Positions 1,864-40,194 of a stretch of 64,000 nt of DNA are shown here, one piece after another. Under the pieces are notes generated by a model that saw nothing but the letters and a program-made list of their open reading frames with translations, was not told where the DNA came from and made no database searches. The position numbers and the translations under genes were made by a program. Every line of letters starts with the position of its first letter. The first letter of the stretch is position 1. Origin of the DNA: Oscillospiraceae bacterium (GTDB taxonomy: Bacteria > Bacillota > Clostridia > Oscillospirales > Oscillospiraceae); the NCBI GenBank assembly GCA_017449185.1, contig JAFSJZ010000048.1, positions 2,937-66,936 on the forward strand. The letters run 5' to 3'.

Positions 1864-3303
1864 ATGATCGTGAAAGCACCCTTTTCCCCTTACCTCGATG
1901 CGATCGCGCCGGGGCTGAAAAAGCTCGTGGCGCTGCTCGGCGAGGATTATGATTACGTCAGCGTTCTGTCCACGGATTCCGTTGGCTTTGTCGTTTCGAT
2001 CTCCCAGCGCGCAAAGCACGTCGACCATTCGACGATGATGACCGAGCGCGGCAGCGTCGTCCGCGTCCGCCGCGGAGGACTGTACAGCGAGTTTGCCTTC
2101 AACCGTTTTGACCCCGCCTGCCCCGAGCAGACCGCCGCCGAAGCGCGGCGCGTACTGAACGAGCAGTTTGCCCTGCTCGAGGAGACGAAGAGCGAGATCT
2201 ACGACACGCCCGCCCTGCCGGATGAGCCCTGTGAGCTCCGCGAGGAGATGGAGACCGGCGAGCTGCCGGAGAACTGCGATCTCGGCGAGCTGGTCGACAG
2301 CTTTTCGGAGATGTCGGCGCGCGGCGTCGCCTGCGGCGAGCACGCCGTCGACTGTCATGTGCGCGGCCAGTCCACCCACGTGTGCAAGATGTTCCTCACG
2401 GCGAAGCGCGACATGCGCCAGAGCTACGTCTATTCCGAGGGCGTCGTTGCGGTGATCGCGGCGGGCGAAGCGGGCGTCAAGTTCGGCTATGAGAGCGTCT
2501 CCGACCGCAAAGGCCCTGAGATTTTCGCCCTGCTCGGAGAAAAGGTCGAAAAGGTCGCAAAGAGCGCCGAGGAGCTGCTCACGGCCGAAAGGATCGAGCC
2601 GGGCGAGTACGAGGTCATCGTCTCGCCGGAGGTCAGCGGTCTGATCGCGCACGAGGCCTTCGGCCACGGCGTGGAGATGGACATGTTTGTGAAGAACCGC
2701 GCGCTCGGCGCAGAGTATATCGGCAAGCGCGTCGGCAGTGATCTCGTGACGATGCACGAGGGCGCAAAGCCGGAGATCCAGGTCGCGAGCTATGCCTTCG
2801 ACGACGAGGGCACGCTCGCCCATGACACCGTGGAGATCCGAAACGGCATCCTGCAGACCGGCGTGTGCGACGCCCTCGCGGCTCTGCGCCTTGGCGTCGA
2901 GCCTACCGGCAACGGCAAACGCCAGAACTTCGAGCACAAGGTTTACACCCGCATGACCAACACGGTGTTCGAATCGGGCGAGTCGACGCTCGAGGAAATG
3001 ATCGCGACGGTGAAATACGGCTATCTCCTCAAGGGCATGCAGTCCGGCATGGAGGACCCCAAGCACTGGGGCATCCAGTGCATTATCGACCGCGGCTACG
3101 AGATCCGCGACGGCAAGCTGACCGGCAAGGTCGTCTCCCCGATCGTGATGACAGGCTATGTGCCGGATCTGCTCGGCTCGATCTCGATGCTCAGCCGCGA
3201 CCATGAGCTCTTCGGCTCCGGCGGCTGCGGCAAGGGGCACAAGGAATGGGTCAAGGTCTCGGACGGCGGCCCCTATATGAAAGCGAAAGCGAGGCTCGGA
3301 TAA
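1864..3303 (+). CDS. tldD: TldD-family metalloprotease
   Basis: 479 aa. It has the HEAFGHGVEMD zinc motif and TldD/PmbA-family C-terminal GGCGKG, and is immediately followed by its PmbA partner. Confidence 0.9.
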   Translation: MIVKAPFSPYLDAIAPGLKKLVALLGEDYDYVSVLSTDSVGFVVSISQRAKHVDHSTMMTERGSVVRVRRGGLYSEFAFNRFDPACPEQTAAEARRVLNEQFALLEETKSEIYDTPALPDEPCELREEMETGELPENCDLGELVDSFSEMSARGVACGEHAVDCHVRGQSTHVCKMFLTAKRDMRQSYVYSEGVVAVIAAGEAGVKFGYESVSDRKGPEIFALLGEKVEKVAKSAEELLTAERIEPGEYEVIVSPEVSGLIAHEAFGHGVEMDMFVKNRALGAEYIGKRVGSDLVTMHEGAKPEIQVASYAFDDEGTLAHDTVEIRNGILQTGVCDALAALRLGVEPTGNGKRQNFEHKVYTRMTNTVFESGESTLEEMIATVKYGYLLKGMQSGMEDPKHWGIQCIIDRGYEIRDGKLTGKVVSPIVMTGYVPDLLGSISMLSRDHELFGSGGCGKGHKEWVKVSDGGPYMKAKARLG

Positions 3304-4590
3304 ATGGAAAACTATATTCTTGATCTGCTCCGCAGCTCCGGAGCCGACGCCTGGACCGTATCGGACGTGCGCCGCAGAGGATGGGAATTCTATTTCGTCC
3401 GCCACGCGCTCGACCAGAACCGCGCCCGCGACGCCGAGCACATCACTTTGACGGTGTACAGACAGTTCTCCGAGGGAGAACAGAGCTTCCTCGGAAGCGC
3501 TTCGGCCGAGATCGCGCCCAGCGCATCGCCCGCCGAGGCCGAAAAGCTGATCGCGCAGCTGCTGGACGAGGCGAAGCTGATCCGCAACCCCTTCTACACG
3601 CTCAACGAGCCGCGCGGCGAGGCCGTGCTCACCGCTCAGGCGCCCGACCTGCGCGCCATCTCCGGCGACTTCCTGCGCGCGATGCGCTCCGTGGAAGAGA
3701 GCGCGGACGCGTTCATCAATTCCTACGAGATCTTCGCCGACTGCGTCGAGCGCCGCTTTATCTCCTCGACGGGCATCGACGTGACGGACGTCTATCCCGC
3801 CTCGATGACGGAGGTCGTCGTCAACGCCCGCAGGGCCGGTCACGAGATCGAGCTCTACCGCATGTACAAATCCGGCAGCTGCGACGCCGCCGGACTGAAG
3901 GCGAACGTCGAGGAAACGCTGCGCTTCGGCCGTGACAAGCTGCGCGCGCAGAAAACGCCTGCGCTCGGCAAGTGCGACGTCGTGTTCTCCACGGACGACG
4001 CGCTGGAAATCTACAGCTATTTCATCGACCGCATGAGCACGAACATGGTCTTTCAGCGCATCTCCGACCTTGAGATCGGCAAGCGCGTCTGCGAGGACGC
4101 GGGCGGCGATGCTCTCACGGTCAGGGCGCTGCGCAGCCTCGAGAATTCCTCGCACAACGGCGCCTACGACGAAGAGGGCGCGCCGGTTCGCGAGCTGACG
4201 ATCATCGACAAGAGCGTTGCGAAGAGCTACTTCGGCAGCCGCATGTTCTCGCAATACCTCGGCCTGGAGGACAGCTTCATGCCCGGCAACATCGCCGTCG
4301 ACGGCGGCGCCGCCTCCGCGGCGGAGCTGCGCACGGGCCGGTATCTCGAGATCGTCGAGTTCTCCGATTTCCAGGTCGACGCGATGTGCGGCGACATCGC
4401 CGGCGAGATCCGCCTGGGCTACCTGCACGACGGCGACACGGTCACGGTCGTGGAGGGCGGCTCGGTCTCCGGCACGATGCGCGAGCTGGCCGGCTCGATG
4501 CGATTCTCGAAGGAGCAGAGACAGTACGACAACTATCTCATCCCCGCCGTCACGCGTTTGCAGGGCGTGAGCATCACCGGCGCAGAATAA
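3304..4590 (+). CDS. pmbA: PmbA/TldE-family protein (TldD partner)
   Basis: 428 aa with TldD/PmbA-family similarity but lacking the HExxxH motif. The start is adjacent to the tldD stop (TAAATG). Confidence 0.85.
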   Translation: MENYILDLLRSSGADAWTVSDVRRRGWEFYFVRHALDQNRARDAEHITLTVYRQFSEGEQSFLGSASAEIAPSASPAEAEKLIAQLLDEAKLIRNPFYTLNEPRGEAVLTAQAPDLRAISGDFLRAMRSVEESADAFINSYEIFADCVERRFISSTGIDVTDVYPASMTEVVVNARRAGHEIELYRMYKSGSCDAAGLKANVEETLRFGRDKLRAQKTPALGKCDVVFSTDDALEIYSYFIDRMSTNMVFQRISDLEIGKRVCEDAGGDALTVRALRSLENSSHNGAYDEEGAPVRELTIIDKSVAKSYFGSRMFSQYLGLEDSFMPGNIAVDGGAASAAELRTGRYLEIVEFSDFQVDAMCGDIAGEIRLGYLHDGDTVTVVEGGSVSGTMRELAGSMRFSKEQRQYDNYLIPAVTRLQGVSITGAE

Positions 4591-4613
4591 GGAATAAGAA
4601 AGAAGAAAAACGC

Positions 4614-4648
4614 AAGGCCGCTGCGATATTCCGCAGCGGCCTTGTTTT
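4614..4648. terminator. Bidirectional intrinsic terminator between convergent genes
   Basis: 12-bp stem aaggccgctgcg/cgcagcggcctt flanked by an A-run and a T-run. Confidence 0.65.
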
Positions 4649-4663
4649 GCAAAACAGGGGGAA

Positions 4664-5506
4664 TTATTCGAGATTGAGGTGCTTTTTGAGAATGAAGCGC
4701 GAGAGGAAGAAGAAGCCGGTGCCAAGCAGGACCTCCCAAAACAGGACCGAGCCCATCGCTCCGGCCATCATCCCGAGACCGTGTGCGGTAATCTCGCCGC
4801 TGTCAGCGAAGAAGCCCCAGCTTCCGCTGCCGAGGATGCGCATGAGCAGGCCGCTGGACACGCCGAAGCCGAAGAGGATGTTCAGCACGACGTCGATGCC
4901 GACATAGGCGAGGACCGCCCAGAGCACGCGGTGCTTTTTCGCCAGATGACCCAGCGAGATCGCCGCGTAGATCTTCAGCGTCTCGGCGGCAGTCGCGGCG
5001 ATCGCGACGATCACGCCCTCGGCGACGAGCCAAGGCGTTGCGGCGGGGAAGTCAAGCTGACGGAACATCGCCAGGAACTCCCGCCAGCCGCGGAGAAGTT
5101 CCTCGCCGCTGTAAGTGACGGCGACCAGCGTGATGCACAGCAGCGCGACAAGGCCGGAGACGATCTCGAGGATCAAGGCGGTCAGACCCTTCGAGGCGAT
5201 ATGCGCGCCCGCCGTGACGGGCAGCGTGTGCATCAGATAACCCTCATCGCCGAGCAGGCCACTGTAAAAGCGGCTGCAGACGAAGATCAGCGCCATCACG
5301 GCCATCGCCACGAAGATGCCGAAGAGCGCCGCGGGGAGCAGACCGACAAACATCTTCATCAGAAAGTTGCTGGAAGAGACACTGTCCATCAGGCGGAAGT
5401 AGAGACCGCAGACCACGCTCAGCGCCACAGCGGCGATCCAGAGCGGGCCGAACTTGCGCAGCATGGAGCGCAGGTCGTATTTCATCAGTTTACCGAGCAT
5501 TGTCAT
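4664..5506 (-). CDS. ABC-2-type membrane permease (YtrC/D-like)
   Basis: 280 aa polytopic hydrophobic protein directly downstream of an ABC ATPase and a GntR regulator. Confidence 0.7.
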   Translation of the reverse strand: MTMLGKLMKYDLRSMLRKFGPLWIAAVALSVVCGLYFRLMDSVSSSNFLMKMFVGLLPAALFGIFVAMAVMALIFVCSRFYSGLLGDEGYLMHTLPVTAGAHIASKGLTALILEIVSGLVALLCITLVAVTYSGEELLRGWREFLAMFRQLDFPAATPWLVAEGVIVAIAATAAETLKIYAAISLGHLAKKHRVLWAVLAYVGIDVVLNILFGFGVSSGLLMRILGSGSWGFFADSGEITAHGLGMMAGAMGSVLFWEVLLGTGFFFLSRFILKKHLNLE

Positions 5507-5516
5507 TTCCTCCTAT

Positions 5517-6221
5517 TCAGATCTGCGCGCGGAACATGTCGCGGAAGAGCTGATCGACGCTGCCGCCGGTGCGCTCGCGGATGCTGTCCACGCTCTCGTG
5601 CAGGACCACCTCGCCCTGCCGCAGAAAGACCGCCTCGTCGAGCACCTGCTCGACGTCGAGGATCAGGTGCGTGGAGATCAGCACCGTGCCGTCCTCGCTG
5701 TAATTCGTCAGGATCGTGCGCAGGATGAACTCGCGCGCCGCCGGATCCACGCCTGCGATCGGCTCGTCGAGCAGATACAGCTTTGCGGCGCGGGACATGA
5801 CGAGCATGAGCTGCATCTTCTCGCGCGTGCCCTTCGAGAGCGTCTTGATCGGCAGCTTTTTGTCCAGCCCCAGTACGCGGCACATCTCGTCGGCCTTGGA
5901 GCGGTCGAAGTCGGCATAGAAGTCGGCGAAGAGCTCAATCATGTCGCCCACGCGCATCCACGCGGGGAAGTAGCCGCGGTCGGGCAGATAGCTGACGATC
6001 TGCTTGGTCTCGACGCCCGGCGCGTTCCCGGCGATGCGCACCTCGCCGGAAGTGGGCTGCAGCAGCCCGTTGAGGATCTTGATCAGCGTCGTCTTGCCCG
6101 AGCCGTTGGGGCCGAGAAGACCGACGATCCTGCCGGAGGCAAGGCTGAGATTGACGCAGTCGAGAGCGCGTACGTTTTCAAAATTGCGGCACAGGTTCGT
6201 GCATCTTACCAATTCATTCAT
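5517..6221 (-). CDS. ABC transporter ATP-binding protein
   Basis: Walker A GPNGSGKTT, signature LSKGTREK, Walker B LYLLDEP. It overlaps the upstream GntR gene by 4 nt. Confidence 0.9.
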   Translation of the reverse strand: MNELVRCTNLCRNFENVRALDCVNLSLASGRIVGLLGPNGSGKTTLIKILNGLLQPTSGEVRIAGNAPGVETKQIVSYLPDRGYFPAWMRVGDMIELFADFYADFDRSKADEMCRVLGLDKKLPIKTLSKGTREKMQLMLVMSRAAKLYLLDEPIAGVDPAAREFILRTILTNYSEDGTVLISTHLILDVEQVLDEAVFLRQGEVVLHESVDSIRERTGGSVDQLFRDMFRAQI

Positions 6222-6592
6222 GTCGTTTCCTCCTTTTTGTCCGCCGCGGCAAGCTCCGCGGCCTGAGCACGGGTAAAGCCCAGTTCTTTCATGGCCGAAA
6301 AGAATTGTTCGGTCAGCTCTGCGGCGAGACGCTTTCGCATCGCGTCGAGCACGCCCACGTCCTCGGTCACGGTGCGGCCGGCGGTGCGGTTCGTGATGAC
6401 GAGACCCTCGTTCTCCAGCTGCCCCAGCGCGCGCTGCATCGTGTTCGGGTTGACGCCCGCTTCCGCAGCAAGCTCGCGCACGGTGGGGAAGCGGGAGGCG
6501 GGCGGGTAAACGCCGGTCACGATCCGCCGGGCGAGCTGTTCGGCAAGCTGCTGCCAGATCGGCCGCGAGCTCTGCAGTTCAAAATCCATCAT
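6218..6592 (-). CDS. GntR-family (YtrA-subfamily, short) transcriptional regulator
   Basis: 124 aa with a winged-helix N-terminus (PIWQQLAEQLARRIVTGVYPPASRFPTVRELAAEAGVNPNTMQRALGQLENEGLV). Confidence 0.9.
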   Translation of the reverse strand: MMDFELQSSRPIWQQLAEQLARRIVTGVYPPASRFPTVRELAAEAGVNPNTMQRALGQLENEGLVITNRTAGRTVTEDVGVLDAMRKRLAAELTEQFFSAMKELGFTRAQAAELAAADKKEETT

Positions 6593-6782
6593 GGCCCTCC
6601 TTTGTATGTTTGTATTAAGCGATTAACACAATACTACAACAATACAATTCTGTCAAGGGGTTTTTCAAAAAAATTTTTGGAAGGGGGAAAATCTGAATAA
6701 TTCTGAAATCTGCGCCGGATCGCTGTACATTTCCGCGCGCCGGGGGTATAACATGAGCGTTCCATGAAAGGAGGACCTTTCC

Positions 6783-18055: not shown

Positions 18056-18445
18056 AAAAAGCGATACGGATCCGCTTCGCGTTTGGTGTCCGGGGGAAAG
18101 ATGCTCCAGCGGGGATTCGCTGCGTTTGCGCCTTGCGGGGGGGAGGAGCATGCTGGGACCGACGCCTTCGGCGACTCGGGTACTTTTCGGCACAGAAAGC
18201 GGGGATTCGAACCCCGGAAGCCCGTCGCAAGGCGACGGACTTCATTTATCCGCTCCGCTCTCGATAAAGACCGCTCCAGCGGATGATTCGCTGCGTTTGC
18301 GCCTTGCGGGGGATCGGCGCAAACCAAGGTATCGACCAGTTTGCGAACTGGTCGATGCACACGCCCCCGGCGTGTGCGATACTGATTCGAATCCCCGCGG
18401 AGCGAAAAAAGGACAAGACCCCACATGGGGGTCTTGCCTTTTTGG
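18056..18445. repeat. Non-coding mosaic of tRNA-Lys-3'-end-like and T-arm-like fragments and GC hairpins
   Basis: Exact matches to the tRNA-Lys locus: 18073..18095 equals 23684..23706 (23 nt), and 18198..18218 equals 23777..23797 (21 nt, T-arm). There is an internal direct repeat of about 38 nt at 18104..18141 and 18274..18312. tttatccgctc occurs at 18246 and also at 23655. Confidence 0.7.
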
Positions 18446-18577
18446 CACATCTGCATAAACTTGATACAATGAACAGATTCTGAGGGCATCTGTTCATTTT
18501 TCCTCCTCAAGAAAGTGCAGACATCAATGGGGATTCACATCGGCGTGACAAAACGGACAAAAGGGACAAAAGAGACC

Positions 18578-23408: not shown

Positions 23409-23601
23409 GAAATGAAAATGAGTAAAAAGATAAAACAGCTCGTAAATGCAAAGATCCCCGGCAGAATGGCTCTGTCGGGGATCTGCAATTCTTTGTATTC
23501 GTGTGCGAGAAGCAGAAAAGCCTCTTGCTGCATGGGCCTTACTGGCAGGGCGGGGTGCAAAGCAATAGGACCCTAATCGTATCAAGATTAGAGTCCTATT
23601 A

Positions 23602-23726
23602 TGGTGCTCCAGCGGGGATTCGAACCCCGTGACCGCGGCTGCGCCGCGATCACATTTATCCGCTCGCGTTGCTCGCTCAAAAACGCTTCGCGTTTGGTGT
23701 CCGGGGTTCGAGAGTTCCGAGGTATC
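23602..23726 (-). repeat. tRNA-Lys-linked module: inverted T-arm copy, conserved core, hairpin, and direct copy of the tRNA 3' end with CCA
   Basis: 23602..23629 equals 23768..23795 (28 nt direct). 23696..23711 is the exact reverse complement of 23786..23801. The core aaacgcgaagcgtttttgagcga...gcggataaa is shared with 39951..39989. Confidence 0.7.
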
Positions 23727-23767
23727 AAAAAAGATACGGACAGGCCGTTGGCCTGTCCGTATCTTTT
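23727..23767 (-). terminator. Intrinsic terminator of the tRNA cluster
   Basis: 14-bp stem gatacggacaggcc/ggcctgtccgtatc, loop of 3 nt, T6 on the minus strand. Confidence 0.75.
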
Positions 23768-23843
23768 TGGTGCTCCAGCGGGGATTCGAACCCCGGACAC
23801 CCTGCTTAAAAGGCAGGTGCTCTGCCTACTGAGCTACTGGGGC
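23768..23843 (-). tRNA. tRNA-Lys (anticodon UUU), CCA encoded
   Basis: Manual fold of 76 nt. Anticodon arm CCTGC-CTTTTAA-GCAGG, T arm CGGGG-TTCGAAT-CCCCG. The acceptor stem has one C:A mismatch at 3:70. Confidence 0.8.
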
Positions 23844-39808: not shown

Positions 39809-39885
39809 GCGCCTTTAGCTCAGCTGGATAGAGCGTCTGGCTACGGACCAGAAGGTCAGGGGTTCGAATCCCTTAAGGCGTGCCA
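39809..39885 (+). tRNA. tRNA-Arg (anticodon ACG), CCA encoded
   Basis: Acceptor GCGCCTT/AAGGCGT (G1:U72), anticodon arm TCTGG-CTACGGA-CCAGA, T arm AGGGG-TTCGAAT-CCCTT. Confidence 0.85.
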
Positions 39886-39920
39886 AAACACGGGACACCC
39901 ATCCGGGTGCCCCGTGTTTT
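39886..39920 (+). terminator. Intrinsic terminator after tRNA-Arg(ACG)
   Basis: aaaacacggg(a)cacc-catcc-gggtg(c)cccgtgtttt. Confidence 0.7.
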
Positions 39921-40051
39921 GCATCCGACCTGCGAATTCGAACCCCTGACCTCAAAACGCGGAGCGTTTTTTGAGCGAAGCGGATAAAAGCTGCGCAGCG
40001 TGTCGCAAAGCGACATGCGAAGCAGGGGTTCGAATCCCTTAAGGCGTGCCA
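39921..40051 (+). repeat. tRNA-Arg-linked module: inverted T-arm copy, conserved core, hairpin, and direct copy of the tRNA 3' end with CCA
   Basis: 39936..39951 is the exact reverse complement of 39854..39869. 40023..40051 equals 39857..39885 (29 nt direct). The core aaaacgcggagcgttttttgagcgaagcggataaaag is homologous to the tRNA-Lys module. Confidence 0.7.
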
Positions 40052-40194
40052 AGAAGAACCACCGTTTTTATCAAAAATCGGTGGTTCTTGGTATTTTTTA
40101 GGCGTTTTCTTTTTTCGCGCTTGCTCAAAAATTCAACTTTAATTCAACTCGCTCTCAAAATCATGCCCTTTTCAAGAAGGCATTTTTACACGGA

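Follow-up and report, generated by a model that had tools for sequence, protein, structure and literature searches.

Hairpin-rich, tRNA-tethered cassettes of rumen Oscillospiraceae share the layout of the Escherichia coli TLRs

The stretch of DNA analysed here, hereafter the window, comprises 64,000 nucleotides (nt) of contig JAFSJZ010000048.1 from an Oscillospiraceae bacterium, and it carries two short modules that each follow a tRNA gene and are built partly from copies of that gene. The first lies, on the minus strand, behind tRNA-Lys(UUU) (23768–23843; called by ARAGORN and scoring 69.3 bits with the Rfam tRNA model), the final gene of a Gly-Arg-His-Gln-Lys tRNA cluster. Read along the minus strand, the gene is succeeded by terminator 1 (about 23727–23767), a long hairpin with a 5′ A-tract and a 3′ T-tract, which by these flanking tracts looks bidirectional, and then by a 15-nt spacer (23712–23726). 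The inverted arm, located by string search, covers 16 nt (23696–23711) and is the exact reverse complement of 23786–23801, that is, of the variable loop, the 5′ strand of the T-stem and the first 5 nt of the T-loop. It is joined to a core, here called type A (23655–23695, from pattern search and reading), which consists of the hairpin aaacgc-gaa-gcgttt (23681–23695) running into a T-run and of a second part, GAGCGA...GCGGATAAA (23655–23678), in which the 9-nt insert GCAACGCGA sits between GAGCGA and GCGGATAAA. A variable GC hairpin, hp3 (23630–23654; 10-bp stem and GCA triloop, from folding and reading), abuts the direct arm (23602–23629, string search), a 28-nt exact copy of 23768–23795 that takes in the T-arm, the 3′ strand of the acceptor stem and the CCA. 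A terminator-like hairpin 2 (23564–23600) follows; both terminators were recognised by sequence reading, terminator 1 having been missed by a simple terminator scan because the scan counted the T-run within the stem. The tRNA gene itself has a C3:A70 mismatch in its acceptor stem, and the direct copy downstream has the same A.

The same succession of parts is found on the plus strand behind tRNA-Arg(ACG) (39809–39885; ARAGORN and Rfam). It comprises terminator 1 (39886–39920, sequence reading), a 17-nt inverted arm (39936–39952, string search) that is the exact reverse complement of the variable loop, T-stem and T-loop, and a type A core (39954–39989, pattern search) made of the hairpin AAAACGC-GGA-GCGTTTT, a T-run and GAGCGAAGCGGATAAAA. 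These are followed by hp3 (39990–40022; 9-bp inner stem and AAA triloop, from folding and reading), a 29-nt exact direct copy from T-arm to CCA (40023–40051, string search) and terminator 2 (40052–40089, sequence reading). The string used when searching for the Arg hp3 was 34 nt long (39990–40023) and takes in the first base of the direct copy. Since the inverted arm reads CCCCT, the complement of the 5′ strand of the T-stem, and not the CCCTT of its 3′ strand, it is genuinely inverted rather than copied directly from the palindromic T-arm. Each module is enclosed between its tRNA's terminator and a second terminator. The terminators at 23727–23767 and 39886–39920, like those of most relatives, are symmetric (A-tract, hairpin, T-tract) and so could halt transcription from either direction. 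A preliminary description of the window had reported this layout behind both tRNA genes, and string searches and reading recover it there; the modules are, as it had also stated, without coding capacity. When the window was dinucleotide-shuffled 100 times, the type A core patterns were matched 0 times.

Scanned once in species-representative genomes and once in metagenomes, the type A core pattern returned 77 matches, distributed over the window and 69 loci of genomes or metagenomes. All records that bear an organism name are genome records; apart from one contig binned as Pseudobutyrivibrio, they belong to uncultured Clostridia of the rumen or gut, under the labels Oscillospiraceae, Ruminococcaceae, Clostridiales or Candidatus Limivicinus. 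A complete tRNA gene of the same strand ends 60–110 nt before 40 of the matches (24 Lys-UUU, 15 Arg-ACG and 1 Ala-CGC), and a further 14 are array members with such a gene ahead of them. The preliminary description had asked whether every copy sits downstream of a tRNA gene: at least 54 of the 77 follow a tRNA or belong to a tandem array, and true orphan cores (L008, L030, L041 and the L027 group) are found after other genes. Seven further matches are on contigs too short for placement to be judged, and 16 fail a crude test for an upstream tRNA or a copy of a tRNA 3′ end, some of these being array members, rearranged loci or short contigs. Other tRNA 3′ ends served are Ala-GGC and two types ending in ...ctccacca, which brings the kinds of tRNA 3′ end with modules to six or more.

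Nearly everywhere, 68–75 nt separate the tRNA end from the core. The direct copy measures 24–33 nt in relatives, and the core of about 30 nt is near-invariant in the 54 unique copies, an invariance that, first hairpin included, is partly forced by the search pattern. Tandem arrays of two to three units occur at L001, L009, L018, L023, L035, L054 and L055, and the window units are single. The preliminary description had argued for a family as opposed to random decay, and the 77 matches, spread over at least six kinds of tRNA 3′ end, bear this out. The cassettes are lineage-specific, short, non-coding and hairpin-rich elements of rumen Oscillospiraceae, tethered 3′ of tRNA genes, and to our knowledge the family had not been described previously in the literature searched.

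The arms follow the tRNA gene beside which they lie. Lys-type arms score 12–17 against their own tRNA, compared with 8–12.5 against the best other tRNA, and arms track lineage variants of the T-loop and T-stem (ttcgagt, ttcgagc, ttcaact and cggag/ctccg), so that the earlier impression of arms rewritten to match the local tRNA proves correct. The inverted arm is complementary to 16–21 nt of the cognate tRNA, variable loop included, and its target segment spans the point at which the direct copy starts. A one-base insertion, CCC-A-C, recurs in the inverted arm, always at one position, in several Lys-type modules (L006, L022, L023, L042, L064 and L068), in an Arg-type module (L060) and in modules of a third tRNA (L054/L062), where it would form a bulged A in the closing helix described below.

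In minimum-energy folds, the inverted arm pairs with the first 10–15 nt of the direct copy in 52 of the 54 unique modules, and the resulting closing helix is predicted to enclose three small hairpins, namely the first hairpin, a 3-bp stem and hp3, most of whose loops are G-N-A triloops. Covariation had been proposed as a check on such a domain: in an alignment of 36 sequences the closing helix is 88.9% paired and five of its pairs are changed on both sides, a result reached by none of 500 shuffles. Because both arms copy the same tRNA, covariation of the closing helix alone is no proof of selection for pairing. The stronger structural case is hp3, which is built from at least eight unrelated stem sequences and always forms a hairpin of 10–14 bp that ends exactly at the T-stem. 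RNAalifold on a MAFFT alignment did not recover hp3, owing to misalignment, and per-sequence folding was used instead. Structure z-scores of the modules range from −3 to −5. Together these results agree with the earlier suggestion that the arms close a structured domain.

The further suggestion that this domain ends in a tRNA-like minihelix with CCA did not survive. The predicted fold leaves the 3′ strand of the T-stem, the acceptor strand and the CCA single-stranded, and since the closing helix consumes the 5′ strand of the T-stem and the T-loop, the minihelix is not the predicted fold; moreover, the acceptor 3′ strand has no conserved partner. By direct inspection, acceptor-stem pairing is good only for Arg (5–7 of 7 positions), with 4 of 7 for Lys and 3 of 7 for Ala; the segment GCGUUUU pairs at 7 of 7 positions with the window's Arg acceptor strand and at 4 of 7 with that of Lys. 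A tRNA or tRNA-like cloverleaf was likewise rejected, the tRNA model scoring 14.8 bits against a threshold of 29 and ARAGORN calling no tRNA there.

Beyond type A, at least five further core families (types B–F) likewise combine an inverted arm, a structured core and a direct copy of the tRNA 3′ end at several tRNAs: type B at L023, L021, L092 and L047, type C at L004, L011, L024 and L091, type D at L069, type E at L010 and L020, and type F at L054, L030, L040/L002 and L043. The direct copy starts at approximately tRNA position 49 in type A, 56 in types B and C, 47 in type D and 44 in type E. These types alternate with type A in arrays (A-B-A-B at L023, D-A at L069), and array units may be near-identical (L001, L035) or divergent (L018, L009). 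Terminators inside one array are diverged copies of one another, with compensatory changes.

Orthologous tRNA-Arg loci, recovered through a YmdB-like neighbour gene, differ in their content. Species at 84–87% protein identity have an empty site, with a bare tRNA-Arg and terminator and no cassette, and some strains have ordinary integrase islands there. One 89% relative carries type C only and another type B only. L092 (type B) and L026/L044 (type A) have flanks that are more than 95% identical and a related terminator 1, and differ in their cassette; differential loss from an A-B array, such as that of L021, explains A-only and B-only alleles as well as movement by an integrase would. The window and L015 share an identical terminator 2 and downstream flank around different module interiors. 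In L007, L059 and L065 the direct arm is a Lys T-arm fused to an Arg acceptor strand, a chimera of modules from two loci; these arms had been considered as truncations marking a fixed crossover point, an idea rejected once the chimera was recognised. Furthermore, the Arg and Ala modules of metagenome-assembled genome SIG466 have a rare core insertion in common. All of the dynamics observed can be produced by ordinary homologous recombination between repeats.

Judged by the layout read from these sequences, classification of the cassettes as TLR-like, after the tRNA-linked repeats (TLRs) of E. coli, is well supported. Our preferred account, to which we give a probability of roughly one half, holds that recombination maintains the repeats and that transcription would reach them by read-through from the tRNA operon. 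In this account the tRNA-derived repeats would recombine with one another: unequal crossing-over, together with gene conversion by the neighbouring tRNA gene, would keep the direct arm identical, would grow and shrink tandem arrays and would account for a site occupied by one cassette type or another. Exchange between cassettes that belong to different tRNAs would generate chimeras and carry a core to new tRNAs, and the inverted arm may stay complementary either through selection on the helix or through template switching within the strand. We infer from these patterns that repeat recombination both maintains and spreads the cassettes. As for expression, a scan found no promoter-like site in the modules, so that any module RNA would come from read-through of terminator 1, and the direct copy would give such RNA a tRNA-type 3′ end; expression of this kind would parallel that of E. 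coli rrA, rrB and rrF. The combination TTGAGC ... GATAAA in the core was considered as a promoter and rejected, its spacing being inconsistent (6 vs 15 nt) and the scan returning none.

Several observations weigh against this account. The inverted arm includes 4–6 nt, complementary to the variable loop, for which the module offers no pairing partner, so that simple selection on the helix fails to explain them. The cassettes are absent from many relatives, and any function must be dispensable. Terminator 1 is strong, and the first hairpin with its T-run resembles a further weak terminator; the dependence of that hairpin's invariance on the search pattern counts in the same direction. With RNA energy parameters the sense and antisense strands are equally stable (−48.7 vs −48.1 kcal/mol, p = 0.21), showing no strand bias, and under DNA parameters the more stable fold is that of the sense strand in 40 of 52 cases (p = 1.6e-5). 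The apical loops of hp3 have 3 nt in 33 of 41 unique cases, mostly GCA, GAA, GGA or GTA closed by C:G, in contrast to the flanking terminators, in which 38 of 57 loops have 4 nt. The block GAGCGAAGCGGAT is also present in reverse orientation in another module type. Taken together, the points of strand, loop and orientation fit a role at the DNA level at least as well as one at the RNA level.

A DNA-level role is made specific in a reading that we regard as unlikely, though far from negligible, according to which each cassette is a non-autonomous, site-specific recombination module that acts as folded single-stranded DNA (ssDNA), like CTX-phage attP or integron attC. The arms would anneal and mimic the T-arm target of the tRNA gene, a recombinase supplied from elsewhere would exchange one strand there, and after replication a copy of the tRNA 3′ end would flank the element on each side, the inverted arm and its loop being next to the right-hand one. 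The order predicted in this way (target copy, remainder, inverted arm, loop, direct arm with target) is the order observed, heterogeneous arrays included. As a complement of the intact target would, the inverted arm of types A, D and E reaches 4–6 nt across the point where the direct copy begins, and the CCC-A-C bulge recurs at the same place in the arms of Lys, Arg and the third tRNA. The oligonucleotide d(GCGNAGC), with its G-N-A loop closed by C:G, is a classic ultra-stable DNA minihairpin; GCGAAGC occurs three to five times per module, and this motif, the G-N-A triloops and the stability of the sense strand under DNA parameters would all suit such a site. So would the orphan copies away from tRNAs, which retain their own upstream terminator and spacer, and the presence of a different cassette type at one orthologous site.

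Against this, no recombinase is linked to the copies and no autonomous relative was found in viral, phage and plasmid collections, and the arm helix, at 10–15 bp, is shorter than a complete tyrosine-recombinase site for two monomers. Whatever the cassette type, terminator 1 of one species looks orthologous to that of another, which argues that the element does not bring it. Retargeting to another tRNA by a crossover in the T-loop would yield a chimeric, defective tRNA, and homologous recombination between repeats can by itself give all the dynamics seen. Membership among integron attC sites was examined separately and fails: the arms read TTCGAAC/GTTCGAA, with C at the R position of RYYYAAC/GTTRRRY, so that GTTCGAA mismatches the integron R-box, and there are no cassette open reading frames (ORFs). 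A bolder version, which we hold to be very doubtful, would make the cassettes programmable ssDNA attachment sites whose inverted arm, complementary to the tRNA gene, serves as a built-in 'guide' across the crossover point, and the E. coli TLRs products of the same process. If it were true, rewriting about 16 nt would retarget the same core machinery to any tRNA by way of a structure-specific recombinase.

An RNA function in trans would make different use of the inverted arm. The cassette would encode a small RNA whose core binds a protein and whose inverted arm pairs with the cognate tRNA, its precursor, 3′ halves or fragments, as an anti-tRNA or tRNA-sensing RNA; we consider this quite unlikely. 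The length of complementarity, which reaches into a variable loop that is itself missing from the module, would be in keeping with such a target, as would an invariant core of about 30 nt amid diverging hp3 and terminators. The core segment GCGGAUAAA resembles a D-loop and the 5′ part of the core resembles the 5′ part of tRNA-Arg (shuffle p of about 0.02), and the E. coli RNA RrB binds Hfq and CsrA (PMC8144298). These points are offset by the strong upstream terminator and the lack of any promoter found in the modules, by the burial of the target segment in folded tRNA, by the absence of a G-U strand bias and by the existence of close relatives that have no cassettes. Moreover, the acceptor-stem pairing that is good for Arg does not extend to Lys or Ala.

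The cassettes might also be neutral debris, left by decayed tandem tRNA duplicates or by the deletion of prophages or integrative and conjugative elements (ICEs) from tRNA T-arms. The loci are indeed integration hot spots. In L014 a mobilisable element (2970–6779), which encodes a MobA/MobL relaxase, a helix-turn-helix protein and a large serine recombinase of 508 amino acids, is inserted at the T-arm of tRNA-Ala(GGC). Its recombinase ORF extends into a partial tRNA 3′ end directly upstream of a type A module, and the element adjoins the module and does not contain one. In gut relatives (L078, L083 and L084), tyrosine-integrase or ParB islands with their own terminator lie right after tRNA-Arg(ACG), and the YmdB protein that these contigs share with the empty-site contigs L079–L082 marks a strain-level polymorphism. 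A direct duplication of the 3′ end is, in addition, the classic integration scar, the core has the weak similarity to tRNA-Arg already mentioned, and many copies are truncated. Debris is nevertheless a highly improbable explanation. The unit of about 115 nt keeps its parts in one order across dozens of species and no fewer than six tRNAs, and the invariant core, the compensatory change in hp3 and the cognate inverted arms are unlike decay. The islands of L078, L083 and L084 are classical ones without inverted arm or type A core, and no larger element carrying the core, such as the full-length prophage or ICE against which the preliminary description had cautioned, turned up in viral, phage or plasmid searches.

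The same searches bear on the proposal, likewise made in the preliminary description, of a miniature element mobilised by an integrase in trans, of the kind of cis-mobilisable elements (CIMEs) or miniature inverted-repeat transposable elements (MITEs), which they do not favour. No relatives were found with the core pattern in viral contigs or by blastn against phages and plasmids. Pfam searches returned no integrase among the ORFs flanking the window's Lys module and, on L008 and L014, identified the serine-recombinase/MobA element of L014. All-against-all clustering of 604 flanking ORFs yielded only syntenic housekeeping genes as recurrent neighbours and no recombinase. For membership among CIMEs, no autonomous element or cognate integrase with the same arms was found in the viral, phage, plasmid and flank searches. 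Membership among MITEs fails, in that the inverted arms copy the target tRNA, the sole duplication is the tRNA 3′ end, with no other target-site duplication, and the copies are nearly all at tRNAs. The resemblance to both classes lies in a small, non-coding body with direct repeats of the tRNA 3′ end on the outside and inverted repeats at the two ends of the core; the differences lie in the target-derived nature of those inverted repeats, the absence of a separate target-site duplication and the failure to find an autonomous relative or integrase.

The window holds, in addition, a degenerate third cluster of module fragments on the minus strand (about 18069–18448, from sequence comparison). 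It contains an Arg-like 3′ end ('gtgcca') with a terminator (18405–18448), a type C module with an inverted T-loop/T-stem arm (18383–18396) and a decayed copy of the Lys 3′ end (18273–18307), and a truncated type A module with core (18245–18262), hairpin (18217–18244) and an intact T-arm copy (18199–18216), as well as further fused fragments (18102–18136 and 18069–18094). This cluster lies 5 kb from tRNA-Lys, and the genes between, for an AAA_14/DUF4143 ATPase and a FecR-like protein, may be an insertion that split an older array.

Rearrangements and contig breaks are seen at several relatives. The tRNA-Arg genes of L009 and L002/L040 have precise internal or 5′ deletions, by which the T-arm comes to follow the promoter directly or 'gtgcca' the D-arm; either true loss between repeats or assembly collapse could be responsible. 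In L047 a module is interrupted between inverted arm and type A core by a small MITE-like insertion of about 190 bp, which has AGTGAACGACA as its terminal inverted repeats together with a TA/TTA duplication. On the same contig an Ala-type left arm is linked with an Arg-type 3′ end, either by real recombination or as an assembly chimera. The contigs of three relatives at 90–93% identity (L087, L089 and L090) break in or right after the tRNA-Arg T-arm, which would fit repeat-induced assembly breaks at arrays. Logan contigs L100–L107 and L112–L117 also end in or near tRNA-Arg; as they mostly stop earlier in the tRNA, and longer contigs of the species are without a module, their breaks need another cause. 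For genome annotation, the repeats may cause contigs of several close relatives to stop at the tRNA T-arm, and since they imitate attL/attR pairs they will mislead callers of genomic-island and prophage boundaries.

The closest known counterparts are the E. coli TLRs, among them the RtT RNA of tyrT/tyrV and the argVYZQ units, on which the earlier papers are reportedly those of Egan & Landy 1978 and Rudd 1999. Known since 1978 and still unexplained in function and origin, the TLRs number 22 units at 10 loci and end in 18–19 nt of the upstream tRNA or 5S gene (Stenum et al. 2021, PMC8144298). The combination of tRNA-matched arms with a common core, to which the preliminary description drew attention, is already seen in them. 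Three E. coli loci, tyrT/tyrV (L070), argVYZQ (L096) and rrnB (L095), were compared directly with the present cassettes. In the tyrT and argVYZQ units an inverted arm (ggggaaggat or gggaggat) precedes the direct copy by 45–100 nt, and in the Rfam RtT consensus (RF00391) it is exactly this arm that pairs with the beginning of the direct copy. A core (AACGTTGC...GCAACGG CCCGAAGGG...) is common to the Tyr, Arg and 5S units, whose arms match their own gene.

Our cassettes agree with these units in being non-coding, in lying downstream of a tRNA gene on the same strand, singly or several in tandem, in ending in an exact copy of the host tRNA 3′ end (28 and 29 nt in the window), in an inverted arm, some 45–100 nt upstream, that pairs with the beginning of that copy, in having small GC hairpins between the arms, many with G-N-A triloops, and in a common core that recurs at different tRNAs with both arms fitted to the local tRNA. 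Triloops of this kind in the E. coli TLRs are GUUGCC-GCA-GGCAAC, CCC-GAA-GGG and GCGC-GCA-GCGC, with GUUGC-GAA-GCAAC in rrB. The differences are of degree and of position. The direct copy has 28–33 nt here as opposed to 18–19 nt, the inverted arm draws on the variable loop, the T-stem 5′ strand and the T-loop as opposed to the 3′ strand of the T-stem and the first part of the acceptor strand, and an intrinsic terminator cuts the units off from their tRNA, unlike the E. coli tRNA TLRs, which lie inside operons. Unlike the E. coli repeats, moreover, the cassettes comprise at least five unrelated core families with a common layout.

The likeness does not extend to sequence. The RtT model, which scores 133–137 bits on E. 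coli units, gave no hit on either module at the gathering threshold (45 bits) or at E ≤ 10, and nhmmer with a hidden Markov model of the type A core was not significant against the E. coli loci (E ≥ 0.2). Rfam, searched at gathering threshold for the window and 10 loci and at a permissive E-value for both modules, returned only tRNAs and chance hairpins. A 12-mer that rrB has in common with type A hp3, GTTGCGAAGCAA, and the motif GAGCGAA(A)GCG are treated as matters of style and not as homology with the E. coli TLRs.

Two other systems offer partial parallels. Like rrA, rrB and rrF, which lie between two terminators and were shown experimentally to arise by read-through at terminator 1 with subsequent processing (PMC8144298), the cassettes are units between two terminators that end in a copy of the upstream RNA's 3′ end; the E. 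coli genes differ in their 5S rRNA host, their CsrA-binding GGA loops and the fact that no inverted arm of at least 8 nt was found in them. CTX-phage attP (XerCD) and integron attC (IntI) share with the cassettes two inverted target-like arms some 60–100 nt apart that fold into a hairpin, arms placed at one end once integrated, tandem cassette arrays and a recurrent single-base bulge in the stem. The cassettes depart from them in arms that copy a tRNA T-arm and not dif or R/L boxes, in a shorter stem, in having no cassette genes and in the lack of a recombinase in the searches made.

With its layout matching that of the E. coli TLRs, the Oscillospiraceae family makes an old puzzle comparable across two phyla. 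Its natural variants, which include different tRNA specificities, core families, arrays, chimeras and empty sites, allow RNA-level and DNA-level accounts to be tested against each other. Finally, since the same design occurs in a distant phylum without sequence homology, it is a design repeatedly produced or selected, and not an enterobacterial accident.

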